Positions 4,347 through 64,000 of a DNA stretch of 64,000 bases are shown here, piece after piece. Within the stretch, counting starts at the first letter, position 1. Every line of letters begins with the position of its first letter. Origin of the DNA: Gammaproteobacteria bacterium (GTDB lineage Bacteria; Pseudomonadota; Gammaproteobacteria; Ga0077554; Ga007554); assembly GCA_021731145.1 (NCBI GenBank), contig JAKFXX010000007.1, positions 72,108 to 136,107 of the forward strand. Direction: 5' to 3'. The notes beneath the pieces were generated by a model, which was given only the letters and a program-made list of their open reading frames with translations, did no database searches and was not told where the DNA came from. Made by a program: the position numbers and the translations under genes.

Positions 4347-7300
4347 ATGAATGCAAACTTGTTCCGGTTGGTTTTCAGTGCGCGGCTTGGCGCGCTGGTG
4401 CCGGCGTGGGAGGGCGCGCGGGCGCGTCGTGCGGGCAAGGGTGGGCAGCGTGGCCGGGCCGGCAAGCATGCCGCGTTGTTTGCAGGGGCGGCGGGTGTTT
4501 TGTTGTGCGTATTTCCAGTCCATGCAGAGTTGCCGATGCCGTGTGGCGGTGGTGCATGCGGTACGAATCCGATCAATACCCTGCCGTTTGCGAGCAGTGG
4601 CCGCGCCGATTTTTCCAGCAACGGCGTCAGTGCGATTATCAATCAGCTTGACCAAAGAGTCGTGCTGAACTGGCAAAGTTTCAATATCGGGGCCGGTAAC
4701 AGTGTTGAATTCAGGCAGCCGGATGCCGGTTCGGCGGCGCTGAACCGTATATGGCAGGGGTCGCCGAGCGAAATTCTTGGCAACCTGAAAGCCAATGGTC
4801 AGCTTTATCTGATCAATCAGAACGGTATTATTTTCGGCAAGGATGCTCAGGTGAATGCCAGCTCGCTGGTGGCATCGGCGCTGAATATCAGCGACGATGT
4901 TTTCAAAAATGGCGGTATTTACGGCGAGTCGTCGGGCGCAAACCCTGTGTTTACCTGGGAAGATGGCAGCGGGGTGGAATATTCCGCCAGCTTCATCCGG
5001 GTGGATAACGGCGCGAAAATCGCGTCCGCGTCCGGTGGCGTGGTCATGATGCTGGCACCCAAGGTGGAAAATCATGGCAGCATCTCCGCGCCGGGAGGGC
5101 AGGCGGTGCTTGCCGCCGGCGCCAAGGTGTACCTGAGCCTGTTGTCCGACAATGAGGTCAATGGCCTCCCCGCAGGTTCATCGCTGCGTGGCTTTGCCGG
5201 GTTGCTGGTGGAGGTTGACCCGCATGCCTCGGGGCTGGGCGGTGAAGTGACCAATATTGGCCAGATTGTCGCCGAGCGCGGCAATATTACCTTGGCTGGG
5301 CTGGCGGTAAACCAGATGGGGCGGGTTACCGCCACGACGTCGCTGCGGCAAAAGGGTTCGATCATGCTGCTGGCCGCCGATACCAAGGCGGGCGGTGACA
5401 AGACAAAGATTCCTGTCGGGCAGCGCACCGGTGCATTGGTGCTGGGCAAGGACAGCGTAACCGAGGTGTTGCCGGAGACGAATGATGCCACTACCAATTT
5501 CGACGGGCAGGGATTCAGTCCGTCCACGGTGGATCTGGCGGGCAAGAGTATTGAGATGCGGGAGAACGCCGCGATTGTCGCACCGGGCGGAAAAGTCAGT
5601 CTTGTTGCCCGTGAGGATCAGCGGTTACCCGTGCCCAGTGAAAGCAAGATTTATATGGCGCCCGGCAGCCGTATTGATGTATCCGGTACGAAAGATGTCG
5701 ATGTGCCCATGGAGCGCAACTTCATTGAGGTGGAGCTGCGTGGTAACGAGCTGAAGGATTCACCGCTGCAGCGCGATGGCGCGTTGCGCGGCAAAAAAGT
5801 GTGGATTGATATTCGCAAAGGCACACCGCTTGCAGATGTCTCCGGTTATACCGCCCAGGTGGGGAGAACGGTCGCGGAGCGTACCGCGGAAGGTGGTGAG
5901 GTGTCGCTGGTGTCCGCAGGCGATATCGTGATGCGTGAAAATGCTGTGATCGATGTCTCCGCGGGCGGGTTGCGTTATCGTGATGGGCAAGGCAAAACGA
6001 CGCAGTTGGTGTCGCAGGGCAGGGTGTATGACATAGGCGATGCGCCGGCCGATGTCATTTACGATGGCATTGCCAGTTTCACCAAGGAATCAAGAAAGTG
6101 GGGGATTACATCCACCTGGAGTGCCTTTGGTGGAGATGGCTCGCTGAGCCGGTTTGAGCAGGGCTATTACGAAGGCAAGAATGCAGGGTCGGTGACGTTT
6201 CTTGCGAGTGGGCTGGCACTGGATGGCACCTTGACGGGCAAGGCAGCCGCGGGCGTGCATCAGCGCGGCAGTGGCGTGCTGCCCCTGGGCGGGAAGTTTA
6301 CGCTAGGCGATGTCAGTCAGGCCGGGGCGTCTACGCCTGATTTCAGGATTCCGGATGTGCTCTTTTCCGCACAAAAAAATCCGTTGCCTGATGATTTTAC
6401 TTTCGATGAACTCAAGGCGAAGGGTTTGCCTGAAAGTTTCAGGAATCGCGTGACACTCTCCACCGGCGTGTTGCAAGCAGGGGGATTCAACCGTATTGGC
6501 GTATACAGCAACGGGCGCATCGAGGTGCCTAAAGGCGTGTCGATCAGTCTCGCGCCCGGCAGTTGGCTCGGAAAGGACGAGGAGGGGAAGGACAAGATAT
6601 ACACCGCCTCGCTGACACTGACCGGCAGAAAGCTGGATATCCTGGGCGATATCGATGTGCCGGCGGGCAAGATTACGCTGGCGAGCAAGAGAACGCTCGG
6701 CTCCGAGCTACTACAACAGGCGGAAGATTTTCGCGTCAATGTGGGCGCGGACGCCGGCATCACTGCCCGTGGTTTGTGGGTGAATGACTCGCGCTGGGTT
6801 ACGCCGGTAACGGGTGCGGACCCGTTGCTGATCAACGGCGGGTCGATTTCAGTAAGCGCCTTTTCAGATGTCGCACTGAGTTCCGGCAGCGTGCTGGATG
6901 TTTCCGGTGGGGGATGGGTGAAGCCCAATAACCGGCTACAGGTGGGCAACGCCGGTACCCTCAGTTTGGCAAGCGGCTCTTTTGTAAATATAAATAGACC
7001 TGATCGATTTGAATCAACACTCTATCTCGATGGCGAGCTCTACGGCTACGCACTGAGCAGCGGTAACACCGTGGGTAAGGGTGGCACGCTCTCGCTCAGC
7101 ACCTCCAGCGTAAAGATTGGCGGCACGCCTTCCCCTGTCCCCGGCGTATTATCACTTGCCACTGGCGTGTTTCAATCCGGCGGTTTCAAGGACTACACCA
7201 TTACCGGCATGGAGGGCGTTACCGTGAGCCGTGGCGCGCAAGTCGCTCCGCTTGCCGAGAGCCGGGTGCTGACGCCGGATTTTGTGACACGCCGCAGCGG

Positions 7301-10300
7301 TGCGGATATTGGCGGCTTCAGCCGGCGCCAGGTGTTGCTGCCAGAGCAGCGTGCGCCCGGCACCATCACCTTTGCCGCCGGAAGTTCCTTGTGGGGAGCT
7401 ATTTCGGTTGAGGAAGGCGCGCAGGTGCGCACCGATCCAGGGGGAACGATTACGCTCAGTGCAGGCAGCCAGATCAGCCTTTTTGGCGCGCTGGAAGCGC
7501 CCGCCGGGAAGATTTTGCTGGATATAAAAGGCTATGCCGTGAACGGGACATTCGAGCCTAACCGTTTCGTTTGGCTGGGGGGCAACAGCCGCTTATTGGC
7601 GCAGGGTTTCGCCAGAACCCAGACCAATAACCAGGGGCTGCTTCAGGGCGAGGTTCTGGCTGGCGGTGAGATTAACGTCAGCGCCCCGCAAGATACATAT
7701 CTTGTCGCCGAGGCGGGTTCGGTGATGGATGTTTCAGGGGTCAGCGCCACGCTGGATATTCCTCAGCAAAACAATGCCGGCGTGAGCTATCGCCGTGACA
7801 CGATTGCCGGGGATGCGGGCGTTGTTAATCTTGCCATGTCCAACATGTTGCTTGACGGCACATTAAAGGGTGCGGCCGCCGGGGAGCATGCGCGTGGTGG
7901 TTCGCTTATTCTGTCATCCCCCGTGATGGTGGTGAAAGAGGATGGCGCGTCGTTGCCGCAGGGTTTGACGCCCGGCCAGAATATCGCTGCCAAAATGCTT
8001 GAGCCTGCGGCAAGCGCCCTCCAGGGGAAGTCTTTCGTTACGGCAAAGTCGGTGCGTGATGGCGGCTTTGATCAGATCACCTTGACGAGCCTGAACACCA
8101 TTGAATTTGATGGCGATGTCAGCCTTGCGCTGCGGCGCAGCATCACGCTCGATGCGCCAACGATTGCGGCAAAGGAGAATGCCAAGGTTGATCTCGCGGC
8201 CAGTTATGTGTCTGTGGGCAATAGCTCGATTGTGAAGTCGGCATCATCGGGTGGCGGTGGAACGTTAGACGTCGATGCGCGCCTGATTGATCTGGAAGGT
8301 AATGTTGCGCTACAGGGTTTTGGCAATGTTAATTTGGCCAGCACCGGTGATATCCGGCTCAAGGGCGTGTTGCAGGGCAGCGATTTTCTTGCACGCACGC
8401 TGGAAGGCTCGCTTGTCACCGGCGGCAACCTGACGCTACAGGCTGACCAGATTTATCCCACCACCTTGAGTCAATTCCGGCTGGCCGTTGAAAATAATCC
8501 AACGGGCAGCGTGACGATCCTCGGTGGAGGCGCGCCCAGCCCGGTGTTGTCGGCGGGCGGCAAACTTACCGTGAATGCGCCAAACATTGTGCAGCAAGGG
8601 GTACTCAAGGCGCCGCTGGGTGACATCACGCTGGCAGCGGAAGATACGCTGACCTTGGGCGATGGCAGTATCACGTCGGTTTCGGCGGAGGGGCAGATCA
8701 TTCCCTTCGGCAAGACCGATCTGAACGGCAGCGATTATCTCTACCCGCTGGCAGCCGTCGATCTTCGGCTGGATGCGCCGCCTGAAAAGCGTATCCGGTT
8801 GAATGGCAAGGCGATCACGGTTTCAGAAAATGCCGTAGTGGATATCTCCGGCGGGGGCGATCTTTACGCCTATGAATTCATTCCGGGGCCGGGTGGATCC
8901 AGGGATGTGCTTGATGCGGCGAATGCGGGTGATGTTTTCGCCATTCTGCCGGGACGTGCATCTGAATTTGCACCCTATGACAGCCATTATTATCAGGGTA
9001 ACAAGGGAATCAAGCCGGGCGATAGTGTTTATCTATCCGGCGTGGAGGGCTTGCCGGCAGGTTTTTATGCCATGATGCCTGCCCGTTATGCCTTGTTGCC
9101 CGGCGCCTTTCTGGTGAAACCGGTCTCAGGGTATCAGGATATGTCGCCTGGCCAGGCTGTGAAATTGACCGATGGCGCAACCATTGTGTCAGGCTACCAC
9201 GCGGCCGTGGGCCTGGACGGCAGCATCCTGCGTGATGCCAGAACATCGGGTTTTGCCGTGCGCCCTGGCGCATCTGCGCGCACCCAATCGGAGTATCTGG
9301 ATAGCACCGCGAGCGGATTCTTCGCCAACAGCCCGGGCACCCAGCTATCGGGCGATGCAGGCAATCTCTCCATCGCCGCTACCCAGTCCTTAACGCTGAA
9401 TGGTGTGCTGAAAGGTGATCATGCCGCTGGGCGTAACGGCTCGGAAGTGGACATTACCGCCGACCGGCTGGCCATCGTAGGCGCAGGGGCAGACACGTCT
9501 GGTCTGGAGGGCTTCATGCAGCTTGATGCCGCCAGCCTGAACAAATTCAGCGCGTCCAGCCTGTTGTTGGGCGGTACCCGCAAGCGCACTGAAAAAGGCA
9601 TGGAAATCCGCATGGATGCACGGCAGGTTGTGGTCGCCAACACGGCATCCAGCGCGCTGCGTGGCCCTGAGGTTTTATTGGCCGCCAAGGATGAGGTCAG
9701 GGTAAAGGCGGGCAGCGTAGTGGAAGGCAAGGGCGCCGCTTCCGGCAAGCCCCAGGATATTGCCATCGGGTTCACGATCAGGGATACCGACAACGACGGC
9801 GTTATCGGCAAGGCGGACACCAATCGCGGTGATGTGAATCATGATGGCGTGATTGATGGGCAGGACAATGTGGACGGCAATGGCGCGCTGTTGCGCGTGG
9901 CGTCCGGTGAAGCGGTGGCGATAACGCGCGAGAGCGTTGATCGCAGCCAGGGTGATCTGGTGGTGGAGGCCGGCGCGGTGTTGCGGGCAGACAAGTCCAT
10001 GATATTGGACGCTACGCGTGACAACCGTTCAGAGGGCACGCTTGCATTGGGCGAAGGGGGCGCTTTGAGCGTGGGCGCGCAGCGCATCAGCCTGGGCGAG
10101 GCGGGCGATGTGCGGGAAGGGTTGGTGTTTTCCAATGCGCAGCTTGCCGCGCTGAATAACCTTGGCAGCCTGACACTGCGCAGTTATAGCGCGGTGGATA
10201 TTTATGGCGGGGGCGATTTCGGCAGCAAGGCACTGAAGAACCTTTCTATCGAAGCGGCGGGTTTCGGAGGTTATCAAAACGCAGGACAAACAGCGACGCT

Positions 10301-60948: not shown

Positions 60949-62172
60949 ATGCAAACCCAGCTTAGCGATTCCATCAAAAATACCCCACAAGGCCAGGAGG
61001 CCGACAGCATTCTGCGCGCCTGCGTGCATTGCGGTTTCTGCACGGCCACTTGTCCCACGTACCAATTGCTGGGCGATGAGCTGGATGGCCCGCGCGGCCG
61101 CATCTATCTCATCAAGGGGATGCTGGAAGGCGAGACGGTCAGCCGCAAGACCCAGCTCCATCTTGACCGCTGCCTGACCTGCCGCGCCTGCGAGACCACA
61201 TGTCCCTCGGGTGTGCAGTATGGCCGGTTGGTGGATATAGGGCGGGCCGTGGCAGAAGAGCGCGTGGCTCGCCCATGGCGGGAGCGCGTCACGCGCCGTT
61301 TGCTGCGTGCGGTGATTCCTTATTCCAGCCGTTTCGCTCCGCTTTTGAGGTTGGGTCAGGTGGTGCGGCCGTTGTTGCCGACAGCTATGCGCGCTTCCAT
61401 ACCGTCGCGTCAGCCCTCTACCCTCTGGCCCGCGCCTCGCCACACCCGGAAAATGATGGTGCTGGATGGCTGTGCGCAACCTGCCATCGCTCCCAACATC
61501 AACGCCGCCGCAGCGCGCGTGCTGGATCGTCTGGGCATCTCACTGCTACGCGCCGATAGGGCAGTCTGCTGTGGAGCGGTGAGTCATCATCTCAATGCTC
61601 ACGAAGAAGGCATGGATTTCATGCGCCGCAACATCGACGCCTGGTGGCCGCATGTCGAAGCGGGCGCGGAGGCCATAGTCATGACTGCCAGCGGCTGTGG
61701 CGCCCTGGTAAAGGAATACGGCCACATCCTGCGCCATGATCCGGCCTATGCCGAAAAAGCCGCGCGTGTTTCTACGCTTACCCGGGATATTTCCGAGATA
61801 CTGCTGGCTGAAAAGGACAGCCTGGCAAAACACTTCAGCAACTCTAAGAGCCAGAGGCTCGCTTTTCATTCGCCCTGCACCTTGCAGCATGGCCAAAAAC
61901 TGCCCGGCGTTGTGGAGGATATCCTGCAAACCTGTGGCTACCAGCTCACCCCCGTGCCTGACGCGCATCTGTGCTGCGGTTCGGCGGGCACCTATTCCAT
62001 CTTGCAAAAAGAGCTTTCCCAGCAACTGCTGCAAAATAAACTCACCGCGTTGCAGTCCGGCGCGCCCGCAGTCATCACCACTGCCAACATCGGTTGCCTG
62101 ACCCATTTGCAAAGCCGGTCGGATGTGCCGGTCAGGCATTGGGTTGAGTTATTGGACACTGGCGCAGAATAA
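60949..62172 (+). CDS. glcF: Glycolate oxidase iron-sulfur subunit GlcF
   Basis: Two ferredoxin clusters, CVHCGFCTATCP and CLTCRACETTCP, plus two CCG-type Cys-rich domains. Confidence 0.92.
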   Translation: MQTQLSDSIKNTPQGQEADSILRACVHCGFCTATCPTYQLLGDELDGPRGRIYLIKGMLEGETVSRKTQLHLDRCLTCRACETTCPSGVQYGRLVDIGRAVAEERVARPWRERVTRRLLRAVIPYSSRFAPLLRLGQVVRPLLPTAMRASIPSRQPSTLWPAPRHTRKMMVLDGCAQPAIAPNINAAAARVLDRLGISLLRADRAVCCGAVSHHLNAHEEGMDFMRRNIDAWWPHVEAGAEAIVMTASGCGALVKEYGHILRHDPAYAEKAARVSTLTRDISEILLAEKDSLAKHFSNSKSQRLAFHSPCTLQHGQKLPGVVEDILQTCGYQLTPVPDAHLCCGSAGTYSILQKELSQQLLQNKLTALQSGAPAVITTANIGCLTHLQSRSDVPVRHWVELLDTGAE

Positions 62173-62195
62173 CGATATTTCTTTTTGAGGCGTTT

Positions 62196-62238
62196 CCCAT
62201 TCAGCTTCGGTTCAGCTTGACCGAGGTAATCTGTACCC
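62196..62238 (+). promoter_or_regulatory. Shared promoter motif copy A (TTCAGC-N5-TTCAGC + TAATCT)
   Basis: cccATTCAGCttcgGTTCAGCttgaccgaggTAATCTgta. TTCAGC at 62200 and 62211. Lies about 120-160 bp upstream of the cytochrome c ATG. Confidence 0.5.
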
Positions 62239-62357
62239 AAGCTGGAAGAAAATCCAGCCAAGCTGAAGGAGCAATGAGCGTAGGCCAGCTCTCTATACGG
62301 TCGGTGAATACGTTGGGTCACCGGTATGTTACTCGGTAATTTGATTAGGAGAAGATA

Positions 62358-62690
62358 ATGAAAGTTCAAGCGCTTGTTCTGGGTGCCGCTCTGTCGGTTG
62401 CTGCGTTGCCGTCTTTTGCTGCTGAAGGCCTGGATCTGGCCAAGGCCAGTGGTTGCCTGGCGTGCCACAGCGTAGAGAAGAAAGTTGTTGGTCCTGCCTG
62501 GCAGGATGTTGCCAACAAGTACAAAGGTGATGCAGGCGCCAAGGCTGCCCTGATCGCCAAGGTTAAGGCTGGCGGCAAGGGCAACTGGACTGCCGTAACT
62601 GGCGGTGTACCAATGCCTCCCTACTCCCCTCGCGTTGCCGATGCGGATATCGAGAAGCTGGTAACCTTCGTGTTGGGTCTGGCCAAGTAA
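62358..62690 (+). CDS. Class I c-type cytochrome (c-551/c-552 family)
   Basis: Signal peptide. Heme site CLACH. GPAWQDVANKY...GNWTAVTGGVPMPP with Met as the sixth ligand. Confidence 0.93.
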   Translation: MKVQALVLGAALSVAALPSFAAEGLDLAKASGCLACHSVEKKVVGPAWQDVANKYKGDAGAKAALIAKVKAGGKGNWTAVTGGVPMPPYSPRVADADIEKLVTFVLGLAK

Positions 62691-62706
62691 TAGCCGGATA
62701 ACACCG

Positions 62707-62756
62707 CCTCCCTCGCGTAGCGCCTTTTCGGGCGCTGCGCGAGGGAGGTTTTTTTA
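62707..62756 (+). terminator. Rho-independent terminator
   Basis: Long GC stem cctccctcgcgtagcgcc / ggcgctgcgcgagggagg followed by ttttttta. Confidence 0.85.
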
Positions 62757-62825
62757 TGGCTGATGAAAAGGCCGACTGTTTATTATTTTCAATATCTTAC
62801 GATCAATTCACGGCTCCTTTTTGGC

Positions 62826-62868
62826 CCCATTCAGCCTCTGTTCAGCCTCGATGAGATAGCCTGTAATC
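62826..62868 (+). promoter_or_regulatory. Shared promoter motif copy B (TTCAGC-N5-TTCAGC + TAGCCT)
   Basis: cccATTCAGCctctGTTCAGCctcgatgagaTAGCCTgta. TTCAGC at 62830 and 62841. Lies about 45-85 bp upstream of the ATG at 62911. Confidence 0.5.
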
Positions 62869-62910
62869 GCCTGCAATAATCAGGCGTGCCAACTACCGGA
62901 GGAGATAACA

Positions 62911-63519
62911 ATGAAGCCCTCAATGCTTGTTCTAGGTCTGGCCTTATCATCCCTTGCCGTTTCGTCTAATGCCGTCGCCGGCGATGATAATGACCGCTAT
63001 GATCGTTCCTATGGCAGGGGCTATCATAATGGCGATTATGGGCGCCATGAGCGTCACGGCCATCATGGTCGTCGCTCTGATGATTTTGCCAGAGTGATTG
63101 ATGTCGATCCCATCATCGAAATTTCGCGCACGCCGTACAATCGGCAGCAATGTTGGGATGAGCAGGTAACTTATTCCGGACGCAGCCGCCATGATGCTGC
63201 GGGTGCGATGATTCTTGGCGGCATAGTGGGTGGCGTGGTTGGCAATCAGGTGGGCGAAGGGCGTGGCAGGGATGTCGCCACATTGCTTGGGACGCTGGTG
63301 GGCGCCTCCATCGGCCATGACATGAGCGGGAGAAACGCGCCCCCCACTCCCGTAGTGAACCAGCGCTGCCGCAACATCACCCAGTATGATGAAAGCGAGC
63401 GTGTTGCTGGTTACCGCGTGACGTACTCTTATAGGGGGCAAACCTATGTAACGCGCACCGACAGTCATCCCGGCTCGATGATCAGAGTCAGTTCGGCGGT
63501 TACGTCGTATGACGATTGA
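62911..63519 (+). CDS. Glycine-zipper (17-kDa-antigen/YMGG-like) secreted protein with a His/Arg/Asp-rich N-terminal region
   Basis: Signal peptide. GDDNDRYDRSYGRGYHNGDYGRHERHGHHGRRSDD. Glycine zipper GAMILGGIVGGVVGNQVGEG...LLGTLVGASIG. Confidence 0.8.
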   Translation: MKPSMLVLGLALSSLAVSSNAVAGDDNDRYDRSYGRGYHNGDYGRHERHGHHGRRSDDFARVIDVDPIIEISRTPYNRQQCWDEQVTYSGRSRHDAAGAMILGGIVGGVVGNQVGEGRGRDVATLLGTLVGASIGHDMSGRNAPPTPVVNQRCRNITQYDESERVAGYRVTYSYRGQTYVTRTDSHPGSMIRVSSAVTSYDD

Positions 63520-63808
63520 GATTTCGAGGTGGATTGCCCGTATATTACAAGGTGGTGTGCTGGCAGCACTATTGGTAGTGTGGGTAATGCCCGCCCACGC
63601 CGCCCTCCGGGTCGCGGATCATCAACGGCGGCAATTGACGCTCGATGATGCCGTCGCCGAGGTGCGTCAGGCAACGGCGGGGCGGGTGGTGTCGGCGGAT
63701 GCGGCGGAGATACAGGGACGAGCGATGTTTCGTATCAAGGTGCTCACCACCTCCGGGCAGGTGCGTATCTTCATGGTCGAGCCGGAGGGCGGTAAACGGT
63801 TTGAATAA
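63509..63808 (+). CDS. PepSY-domain protein
   Basis: The start overlaps the upstream stop. Signal/TM GVLAALLVVWVMPAHA. LDDAVAEVRQATAGRVVSADAAEIQGRAMFRIKVLTTSGQVRIFMV. Confidence 0.75.
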   Translation: MTIEISRWIARILQGGVLAALLVVWVMPAHAALRVADHQRRQLTLDDAVAEVRQATAGRVVSADAAEIQGRAMFRIKVLTTSGQVRIFMVEPEGGKRFE

Positions 63809-63828
63809 ACCTAAAAACCTCAGATGTA

Positions 63829-63960
63829 AGCCACAGAGTTCACAGAGAACACAGAGGTGATACGGGTTCTGCGTGTTTATTCTGATCACCGGGCGGGTGA
63901 GGAAAAAATCCACCGTAACTCATGAGTTTTTCTTCTGTGAACTCTGTGTTCTCTGTGGCT
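63829..63960. repeat. MITE/REP-like element with cacagag-module inverted termini
   Basis: Left agccacagag-ttcacagag-aacacagag (63829-63857). Right ttctgtgaa-ctctgtgtt-ctctgtggct (63933-63960). About 75-bp core. Confidence 0.65.
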
Positions 63961-64000
63961 AACCGCTTTTTTTAGAATAACGAGCGAAGGGTGGGCGATG

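Follow-up and report, generated by a model that had tools for sequence, protein, structure and literature searches.

A predicted PhoP-type promoter element shared by a cytochrome c gene and a glycine-zipper/PepSY two-component operon in an uncultivated proteobacterium

Near the 3' end of the window (the whole stretch of DNA that was analysed, 64,000 nucleotides), two intergenic segments resemble each other closely. One precedes a gene for a soluble c-type cytochrome and the other precedes a gene for a glycine-zipper envelope protein. The question that this locus raises is what the shared sequence does and which protein would act on it.

The repeated motif and its two transcription units

The two segments, 62196-62238 (CCCATTCAGCTTCGGTTCAGCTTGACCGAGGTAATCTGTACCC) and 62826-62868 (CCCATTCAGCCTCTGTTCAGCCTCGATGAGATAGCCTGTAATC), align without gaps and are identical at 31 of 43 positions, including 19 of the first 21, as the first-pass annotation had counted by hand. 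The phasing that it described is also exact. TTCAGC recurs with a period of 11 bp in both copies (62200 and 62211; 62830 and 62841), and a TAnnCT hexamer begins 16 bp past the start of the second repeat (TAATCT at 62227-62232 and TAGCCT at 62857-62862), so that each hexamer lies 11 nt past the second TTCAG. Both boxes are intergenic and on the coding strand. The features of the locus are as follows.

62199-62215, + strand: putative PhoP-type box 1 (ATTCAGCTTCGGTTCAG), two RTTCAG half-sites 11 bp apart, 5' of the cytochrome c gene
62227-62232, + strand: -10-like hexamer TAATCT of the candidate cytochrome c promoter, read from the sequence
62358-62690, + strand: cytochrome c551/c552-type gene, monocistronic (110 aa with a signal peptide; Pfam Cytochrom_C, E 9.9e-10)
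62706-62756, + strand: intrinsic terminator (20-pair stem and T-run) that closes the cytochrome c unit
62829-62845, + strand: putative PhoP-type box 2 (ATTCAGCCTCTGTTCAG), 5' of the glycine-zipper/PepSY/regulator/kinase operon; putative autoregulatory site
62857-62862, + strand: -10-like hexamer TAGCCT of the candidate operon promoter, read from the sequence
62911-63519, + strand: YcfJ-like glycine-zipper 2TM protein, first gene of the operon (202 aa with a signal peptide; Rick_17kDa_Anti, E 1.2e-8; PRK11280, 93.8 bits)
63509-63808, + strand: small secreted protein of the PepSY family (99 aa); compare DbfQ
63826-63963, no strand: inserted element of ~138 bp bounded by terminal inverted repeats of 30 nt, in the spacer from the PepSY to the regulator gene and outside the switch proper
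63998-64000, + strand: start codon (ATG) of a PhoP-like response regulator gene, which continues past the window end on contig L001

The double repeat is rare. An exact search of both strands found TTCAGC-N5-TTCAGC at only these two sites in 64 kb, each followed by TAnnCT, and the shorter TTCAG-N6-TTCAG is likewise found only at 62200 and 62830. With up to two mismatches allowed, the window contains 10 matches against 6.6 expected, which is near chance; thus it is the exact double repeat, and not the loose pattern, that constitutes the signal. A weight matrix trained on 60 independent orthologous loci, from which the window was excluded, scores box 1 at 32.6 bits and box 2 at 27.0 bits. By comparison, no other site in the window exceeds 11.4 bits, and the best score obtained in 30 shuffles was 18.2 bits.

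The first box lies 24 nt past the end of glcF (60949-62172; NCBIfam GlcF, 693 bits). The distance from the first T of the box to the start codon is 158 nt for the cytochrome c gene and 81 nt for the glycine-zipper gene, and these two genes are the only targets visible in the available DNA. Among solved structures, those closest to this protein are of the c552 and c551 cytochromes (E 9e-21 to 1e-16). The two transcription units are separated by the strong terminator at 62706-62756. In the cytochrome leader, about 50 nt past the box, positions 62260-62268 (CAAGCTGAA) form the reverse complement of the second half-site and its flank (TTCAGCTTG), and at the corresponding position three relatives (L071, L073 and L075) carry TTCAGCC in direct orientation. 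This sequence may be a third half-site or may have arisen by chance.

The operon begins with the glycine-zipper gene, whose product is rich in Asp, His, Arg and Tyr in its N-terminal region (residues ~24-58). A literature search for a link between ycfJ and PhoP gave no direct result. The glycine-zipper gene overlaps the 99-aa open reading frame at 63509-63808. Although the window copy of this protein matches Pfam PepSY below threshold (14.7 bits, E 0.038), PepSY is matched by 22 of 26 orthologues (best E 9.5e-10), which bears out its earlier assignment to that family. In many loci the orthologues sit between the glycine-zipper gene and the regulator gene. The remark in the first-pass annotation that PepSY genes often precede two-component systems agrees with a published enrichment of more than 60-fold of PepSY genes near such systems (PMC12714742).

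The spacer between the PepSY and regulator genes (63809-63997) holds the inserted element, followed by a T-run. The insert is absent from three relatives (L072, L073 and L075), which have an 18-bp spacer only, and a fourth (L071) carries an inverted-repeat element of different sequence at the same point. By its sequence the insert looks like an element of the MITE/REP type. It could attenuate read-through into the regulator gene and, since it could limit read-through, autoregulation is less certain here than in the insert-free relatives.

The adjacent regulator and the range of the box

The first-pass annotation had supposed that an OmpR-family regulator might be encoded just past the window end, and this is the case. 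Logan contig L001 (9805 bp) overlaps the window by 5009 bp with 100% identity and continues past its end. It shows that the ATG at 63998 opens a gene for a response regulator of 230 aa (Response_reg and Trans_reg_C), followed by a gene for a PhoQ-like histidine kinase of 465 aa (matches to HAMP_PhoQ, HisKA and HATPase_c). The best NCBIfam model of the regulator is PhoP, at 219.7 bits, below the equivalog cut-off of 336. That of the kinase is PhoQ, at 215 bits, below the cut-off of 497 and covering only the cytoplasmic part of the protein (residues 196-460); the next best model is CreC at 110 bits. Full-length alignments with the Pseudomonas aeruginosa proteins give 58% identity to PhoP for the regulator (221 residues, no gaps) and 35% identity to PhoQ for the kinase (450 residues, including the periplasmic domain). 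The PhoP reference was confirmed by exact look-up ("two-component system response regulator PhoP [Pseudomonas]"). At the recognition helix this regulator has SNVLEVLVGRLRRKL, PhoP has ANVIEVLVGRLRRKL and BqsR/CarR has SNVIEVHVNHLRRKL; the PhoP helix is almost the same and the BqsR helix differs at 3 of 15 residues.

In the kinase, two transmembrane-like segments flank a periplasmic domain of ~140 aa. The protein lacks both the RExxE motif of BqsS and the acidic cluster seen in enteric PhoQ. Without the acidic cluster the signal need not be Mg2+, and with both motifs missing the analogy to Mg2+ sensing is weak. On the 3' side of the kinase gene, L001 carries (7048-9776) a gene, in opposite orientation, for a secreted trypsin-like protease and an AAA_21/RloB gene pair that resembles a defence pair of the OLD/abortive-infection type. 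The protease gene adjoins the kinase gene also in L071 and L072.

The range of this arrangement was surveyed with aligned glycine-zipper orthologues (alignment A1) as the query, each species being represented by one genome. The 66 loci listed come from Woeseiaceae, Chromatiales, Sedimenticola, Thiodiazotropha, Marinobacterium, Methylophaga, Steroidobacteraceae, Competibacteraceae and many Burkholderiales, and no locus among them exceeds 55% identity. In 57 of the 66, genes for homologues of the regulator (57-86% identity) and of the kinase come after the glycine-zipper gene. The operon architecture is widespread; no description of it was found in the literature searched. An exact TTCAG-N6-TTCAG lies 30-140 nt 5' of the glycine-zipper gene in about 35 of the 66 listed loci, and most of the remainder have a box with one mismatch (usually TTCAT or TTCAC as the second half). 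Counting box and -10-like hexamer together, the element precedes the glycine-zipper gene in 60 of the 63 listed loci with enough upstream DNA.

The 60 orthologous sites give the consensus RTTCAG-N5-RTTCA(G/T/C). The purine before the half-site is G in 47 sites at the first half and in 51 at the second; the T, T and A of the half-sites are invariant, and C occupies position 3 in 58 and 57 of the 60, respectively. The hexamer, exactly 11 nt past the second half-site, reads TAnnCT or CAnnCT and has A second and T last in 58 sites each. Matrix matches of at least 18 bits number 76 in the 686 kb of the 66 listed loci against 0-1 in shuffles, a count that, like the 60 of 63, is circular in part since these loci served to train the matrix; the non-circular evidence consists of the exact-pattern counts and the scores in the window. 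A Pseudomonas-type PhoP box with a fixed, -10-like TAnnCT hexamer is conserved far beyond Pseudomonas, in Woeseiaceae, Chromatiales, Thiodiazotropha, Methylophaga and many Burkholderiales, and the usual first gene of these operons encodes a YcfJ-like glycine-zipper protein, not OprH.

The cytochrome c unit has a narrower distribution. The order glcF, cytochrome c, glycine-zipper gene, regulator and kinase is kept in seven further contigs (L005, L071, L073, L075, L078, L081 and L082), whose glycine-zipper proteins are 55-87% identical to the window copy. An eighth relative contig (L080) contains the operon promoter only. Both boxes and both hexamers (in L080, those of the operon) are invariant or nearly so in these relatives, which range from close to moderately distant, while the intergenic flanks have diverged. 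Among the listed loci the box at a c551-type cytochrome gene is confined to the window's own clade, and no linkage of cytochrome and operon was found outside that clade in the 66 listed loci.

Boxes also occur before other genes. In a Methylophaga sp. MAG (L054, 6508-7914), two further boxes precede genes for a cytochrome c (Cytochrome_CBB3) that differs from that of the window and for a cupredoxin (Copper-bind), both of which sit between the glycine-zipper gene and the regulator gene. Other high-scoring boxes in the loci precede genes for PXPV-repeat proteins, for a glycine-zipper paralogue and for small secreted proteins with a high content of His, Arg, Tyr and Asp. The small secreted proteins (e.g., HGHGHHRPHHRPHHGHH), in which the content of these residues and of Trp is extreme, belong to no Pfam family. 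Genes of this His-rich type stand behind boxes in L008 (1247-1651), L011 (5439-5828), L025 (5346-5705), L048 (3965-4417) and L012 (8493-8873) and at many loci among L086-L165, and their products share their composition with the N-terminal part of the window glycine-zipper protein. A metagenome scan with ATTCAGC-N4-GTTCAGC-N10-TANNCT returned at least 120 contigs, some matches being expected by chance. The glycine-zipper 2TM domain is present in 12 of the 48 distinct downstream proteins listed and many of those listed are His-rich; a cytochrome c appears among the listed matches only in two relatives of the window.

Activator-dependent promoters and the alternatives

Judged from sequence and conservation, both segments are very probably activator-dependent sigma-70 promoters of the OmpR/PhoB class that are bound by the adjacent PhoP-like regulator. 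No -35-like hexamer was found 17-18 bp 5' of TAATCT (GCTTCG or AGCTTC stands there) or of TAGCCT (GCCTCT or AGCCTC), and GCTTCG and GCCTCT are, as sequences, unlike TTGACA. A scan for the sigma-70 consensus called neither TAnnCT promoter, as would be expected because they have no -35 element.

If TAnnCT is the -10 element, the box would span approximately -40 to -24. In that position it would stand in for the missing -35 hexamer and recruit RNA polymerase. The phosphorylated PhoP-like regulator is predicted to bind the two RTTCAG half-sites, one helical turn apart, as a head-to-tail dimer. Bound at box 2, it would drive the glycine-zipper/PepSY/regulator/kinase operon and hence its own synthesis, a positive autoregulation with the same logic as that of Pseudomonas oprH-phoP-phoQ. 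Box 1 would place the monocistronic c551-type cytochrome under the same signal, leading to co-induction. Activation rather than repression, and co-transcription through the inserted element, are steps that we infer.

If PhoQ and DbfS are a guide, the system would sense a shortage of divalent cations or a disturbance of the outer membrane, and the PepSY protein may modulate this signal. It is also conceivable, if rather unlikely, that the operon is not an Mg2+ sensor and instead encodes a PepSY-modulated envelope sensor related to metals or redox, with a regulon of His-rich and glycine-zipper periplasmic proteins to which soluble electron carriers are added in some lineages. If so, envelope cation or metal status would be linked to the choice of periplasmic electron carrier (the c551-type cytochrome here; the cytochrome c and the cupredoxin in the Methylophaga genome).

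The boxes could instead be bound by a paralogous OmpR-family regulator encoded elsewhere (BqsR/CarR-like or PmrA-like), the adjacency of the PhoP-like regulator being a coincidence. The closest solved DNA-binding domain is indeed that of BqsR/CarR (E 9e-23; ~53% identity by hand count), the BqsR box TTAAG(N)6TTAAG is one base off per half-site, and PepSY genes precede bqsRS (PMC12714742) as they do here. However, the base in question is C at position 3 of the half-site in nearly all of the orthologous sites, the recognition helix matches PhoP and departs from BqsR, and the kinase resembles PhoQ and lacks RExxE. The box moreover accompanies this operon in 60 of 63 listed loci from many families, and a regulator encoded elsewhere is improbable.

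The box might also function in another geometry, either at class I distance from a different -10 element (e.g., AATAAT at 62875-62880) or as an operator at which transcription is repressed. The sole + strand call of the sigma-70 scan, ATGAGA-18-AATAAT with a TG extension, falls in the second unit; AATGAT or AATAAT recurs in the loop of a leader hairpin in relatives of the clade, and P. aeruginosa PhoP represses retS from a box 3' of the -10 element (PMC3156716). AATGAT is nonetheless confined to the clade, whereas the TAnnCT hexamer is nearly invariant, at fixed spacing, in 60 loci. In the Burkholderiales orthologues the equivalent hexamer lies only ~34 nt 5' of the ATG, which leaves no space for another promoter, so the hexamer is most probably the -10 element. 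The box lies 5' of the hexamer in both units, not 3' as at retS. There is therefore little to be said for a different geometry.

A relic of a local duplication or a dispersed repeat with no regulatory role, to which the slight extension of identity past half-sites and hexamer (CCC upstream; GTA after the hexamer) might point, is effectively refuted by cross-species conservation: the first-pass annotation took the motif for a promoter element rather than a dispersed repeat, and this is upheld by its presence in 60 of 63 loci, its two copies only in 64 kb, the restriction of conservation to half-sites and hexamer between diverged flanks, and the same architecture before unrelated small envelope-protein genes in metagenomes.

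The leaders of the two predicted transcripts have features of their own. An Rfam search of 62100-64000 with E up to 1 gave no match, thus neither leader is a known riboswitch or small RNA. Stem-loops lie a few nucleotides past the predicted starts at 62241-62258 (GCUGGA..UCCAGC) and 62868-62886 (CGCCUG..CAGGCG), and relatives have a different hairpin (GCGCAAA..UUUGCGC) at the equivalent leader position. Many orthologous leaders (L005-L070) open with CCAGGCUGGC..GCCAG. The folding of the window hairpins is not clearly better than that of shuffled sequences (z = -0.8 and -2.7 for the short segments and -0.4 for the whole cytochrome leader).

With the two segments read as promoters bound by the adjacent PhoP-like regulator, the two-component system of an uncultivated proteobacterium gains a cognate regulator, a predicted binding site and two predicted direct targets. 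The box at the c551-type cytochrome gene suggests, as a lead only, that envelope signalling adjusts periplasmic electron transfer.

Comparison with known systems

The enterobacterial PhoP box, (T/G)GTTTA-N5-(T/G)GTTTA, replaces the -35 element in its promoters. The predicted promoters of the window share with the enterobacterial PhoP/PhoQ system the direct repeats of an OmpR-family regulator, one helical turn apart and in place of the -35 element, and PhoP and PhoQ are the best NCBIfam models of the regulator and kinase. The half-site sequence differs, the kinase has no acidic cluster, and the model of PhoQ reaches only residues 196-460 of it.

In the Fe(II)-responsive bqsPQRST system of P. 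aeruginosa, PepSY genes also lie 5' of the regulator and kinase genes. BqsR recognises TTAAG(N)6TTAAG, a box that lies across the -35 region at mapped transcription starts (PMC4358008). The tandem 5-bp repeat with a 6-bp spacer over the -35 region is common to both, and the bqs operon is autoregulated. In contrast, the half-site is TTCAG in the window, three recognition-helix residues differ, and the window kinase, whose best model is PhoQ, has no RExxE in its ~140-aa periplasmic domain. Membership in BqsRS was rejected by box sequence, recognition helix and the lack of RExxE.

DbfQ of Vibrio cholerae is a small periplasmic PepSY protein encoded 5' of the PhoPQ-like DbfRS; it binds and controls the sensor (PMC12714742, PMC5636140). 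The DbfQRS system is autoregulated, as seen with a PdbfQRS reporter, and responds to perturbation of the outer membrane and of LPS (PMC12714742, PMC5636140). The window operon can be likened to DbfQRS (VC1637-1639) by description, with a small secreted PepSY gene directly 5' of the regulator and kinase genes, although the window PepSY copy is divergent (14.7 bits). A binding motif for DbfR was not found in the literature searched.

The closest counterpart of the box is in Pseudomonas. For the PhoP regulon the primary reference is McPhee et al. (2006). Gel shifts and site-directed mutations support GTTCAGNNNNNRTTCAG as the consensus of the P. aeruginosa PhoP box (PMC3156716). In the window the boxes read ATTCAG-N5-GTTCAG, with half-site and 11-bp spacing unchanged; the first half-site opens with A in the window and not with G. 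As in oprH-phoP-phoQ, an envelope-protein gene comes first and the two-component system follows in the same operon. The differences are that the first gene here encodes a YcfJ-like glycine-zipper protein instead of OprH, that an additional PepSY gene lies 5' of the regulator gene, and that a cytochrome c is among the putative targets. Taken together, the type of box and the kind of switch are well known, and what sets this locus apart, besides the widespread operon architecture, is the apparent recruitment, in one clade, of a soluble cytochrome into the regulon.
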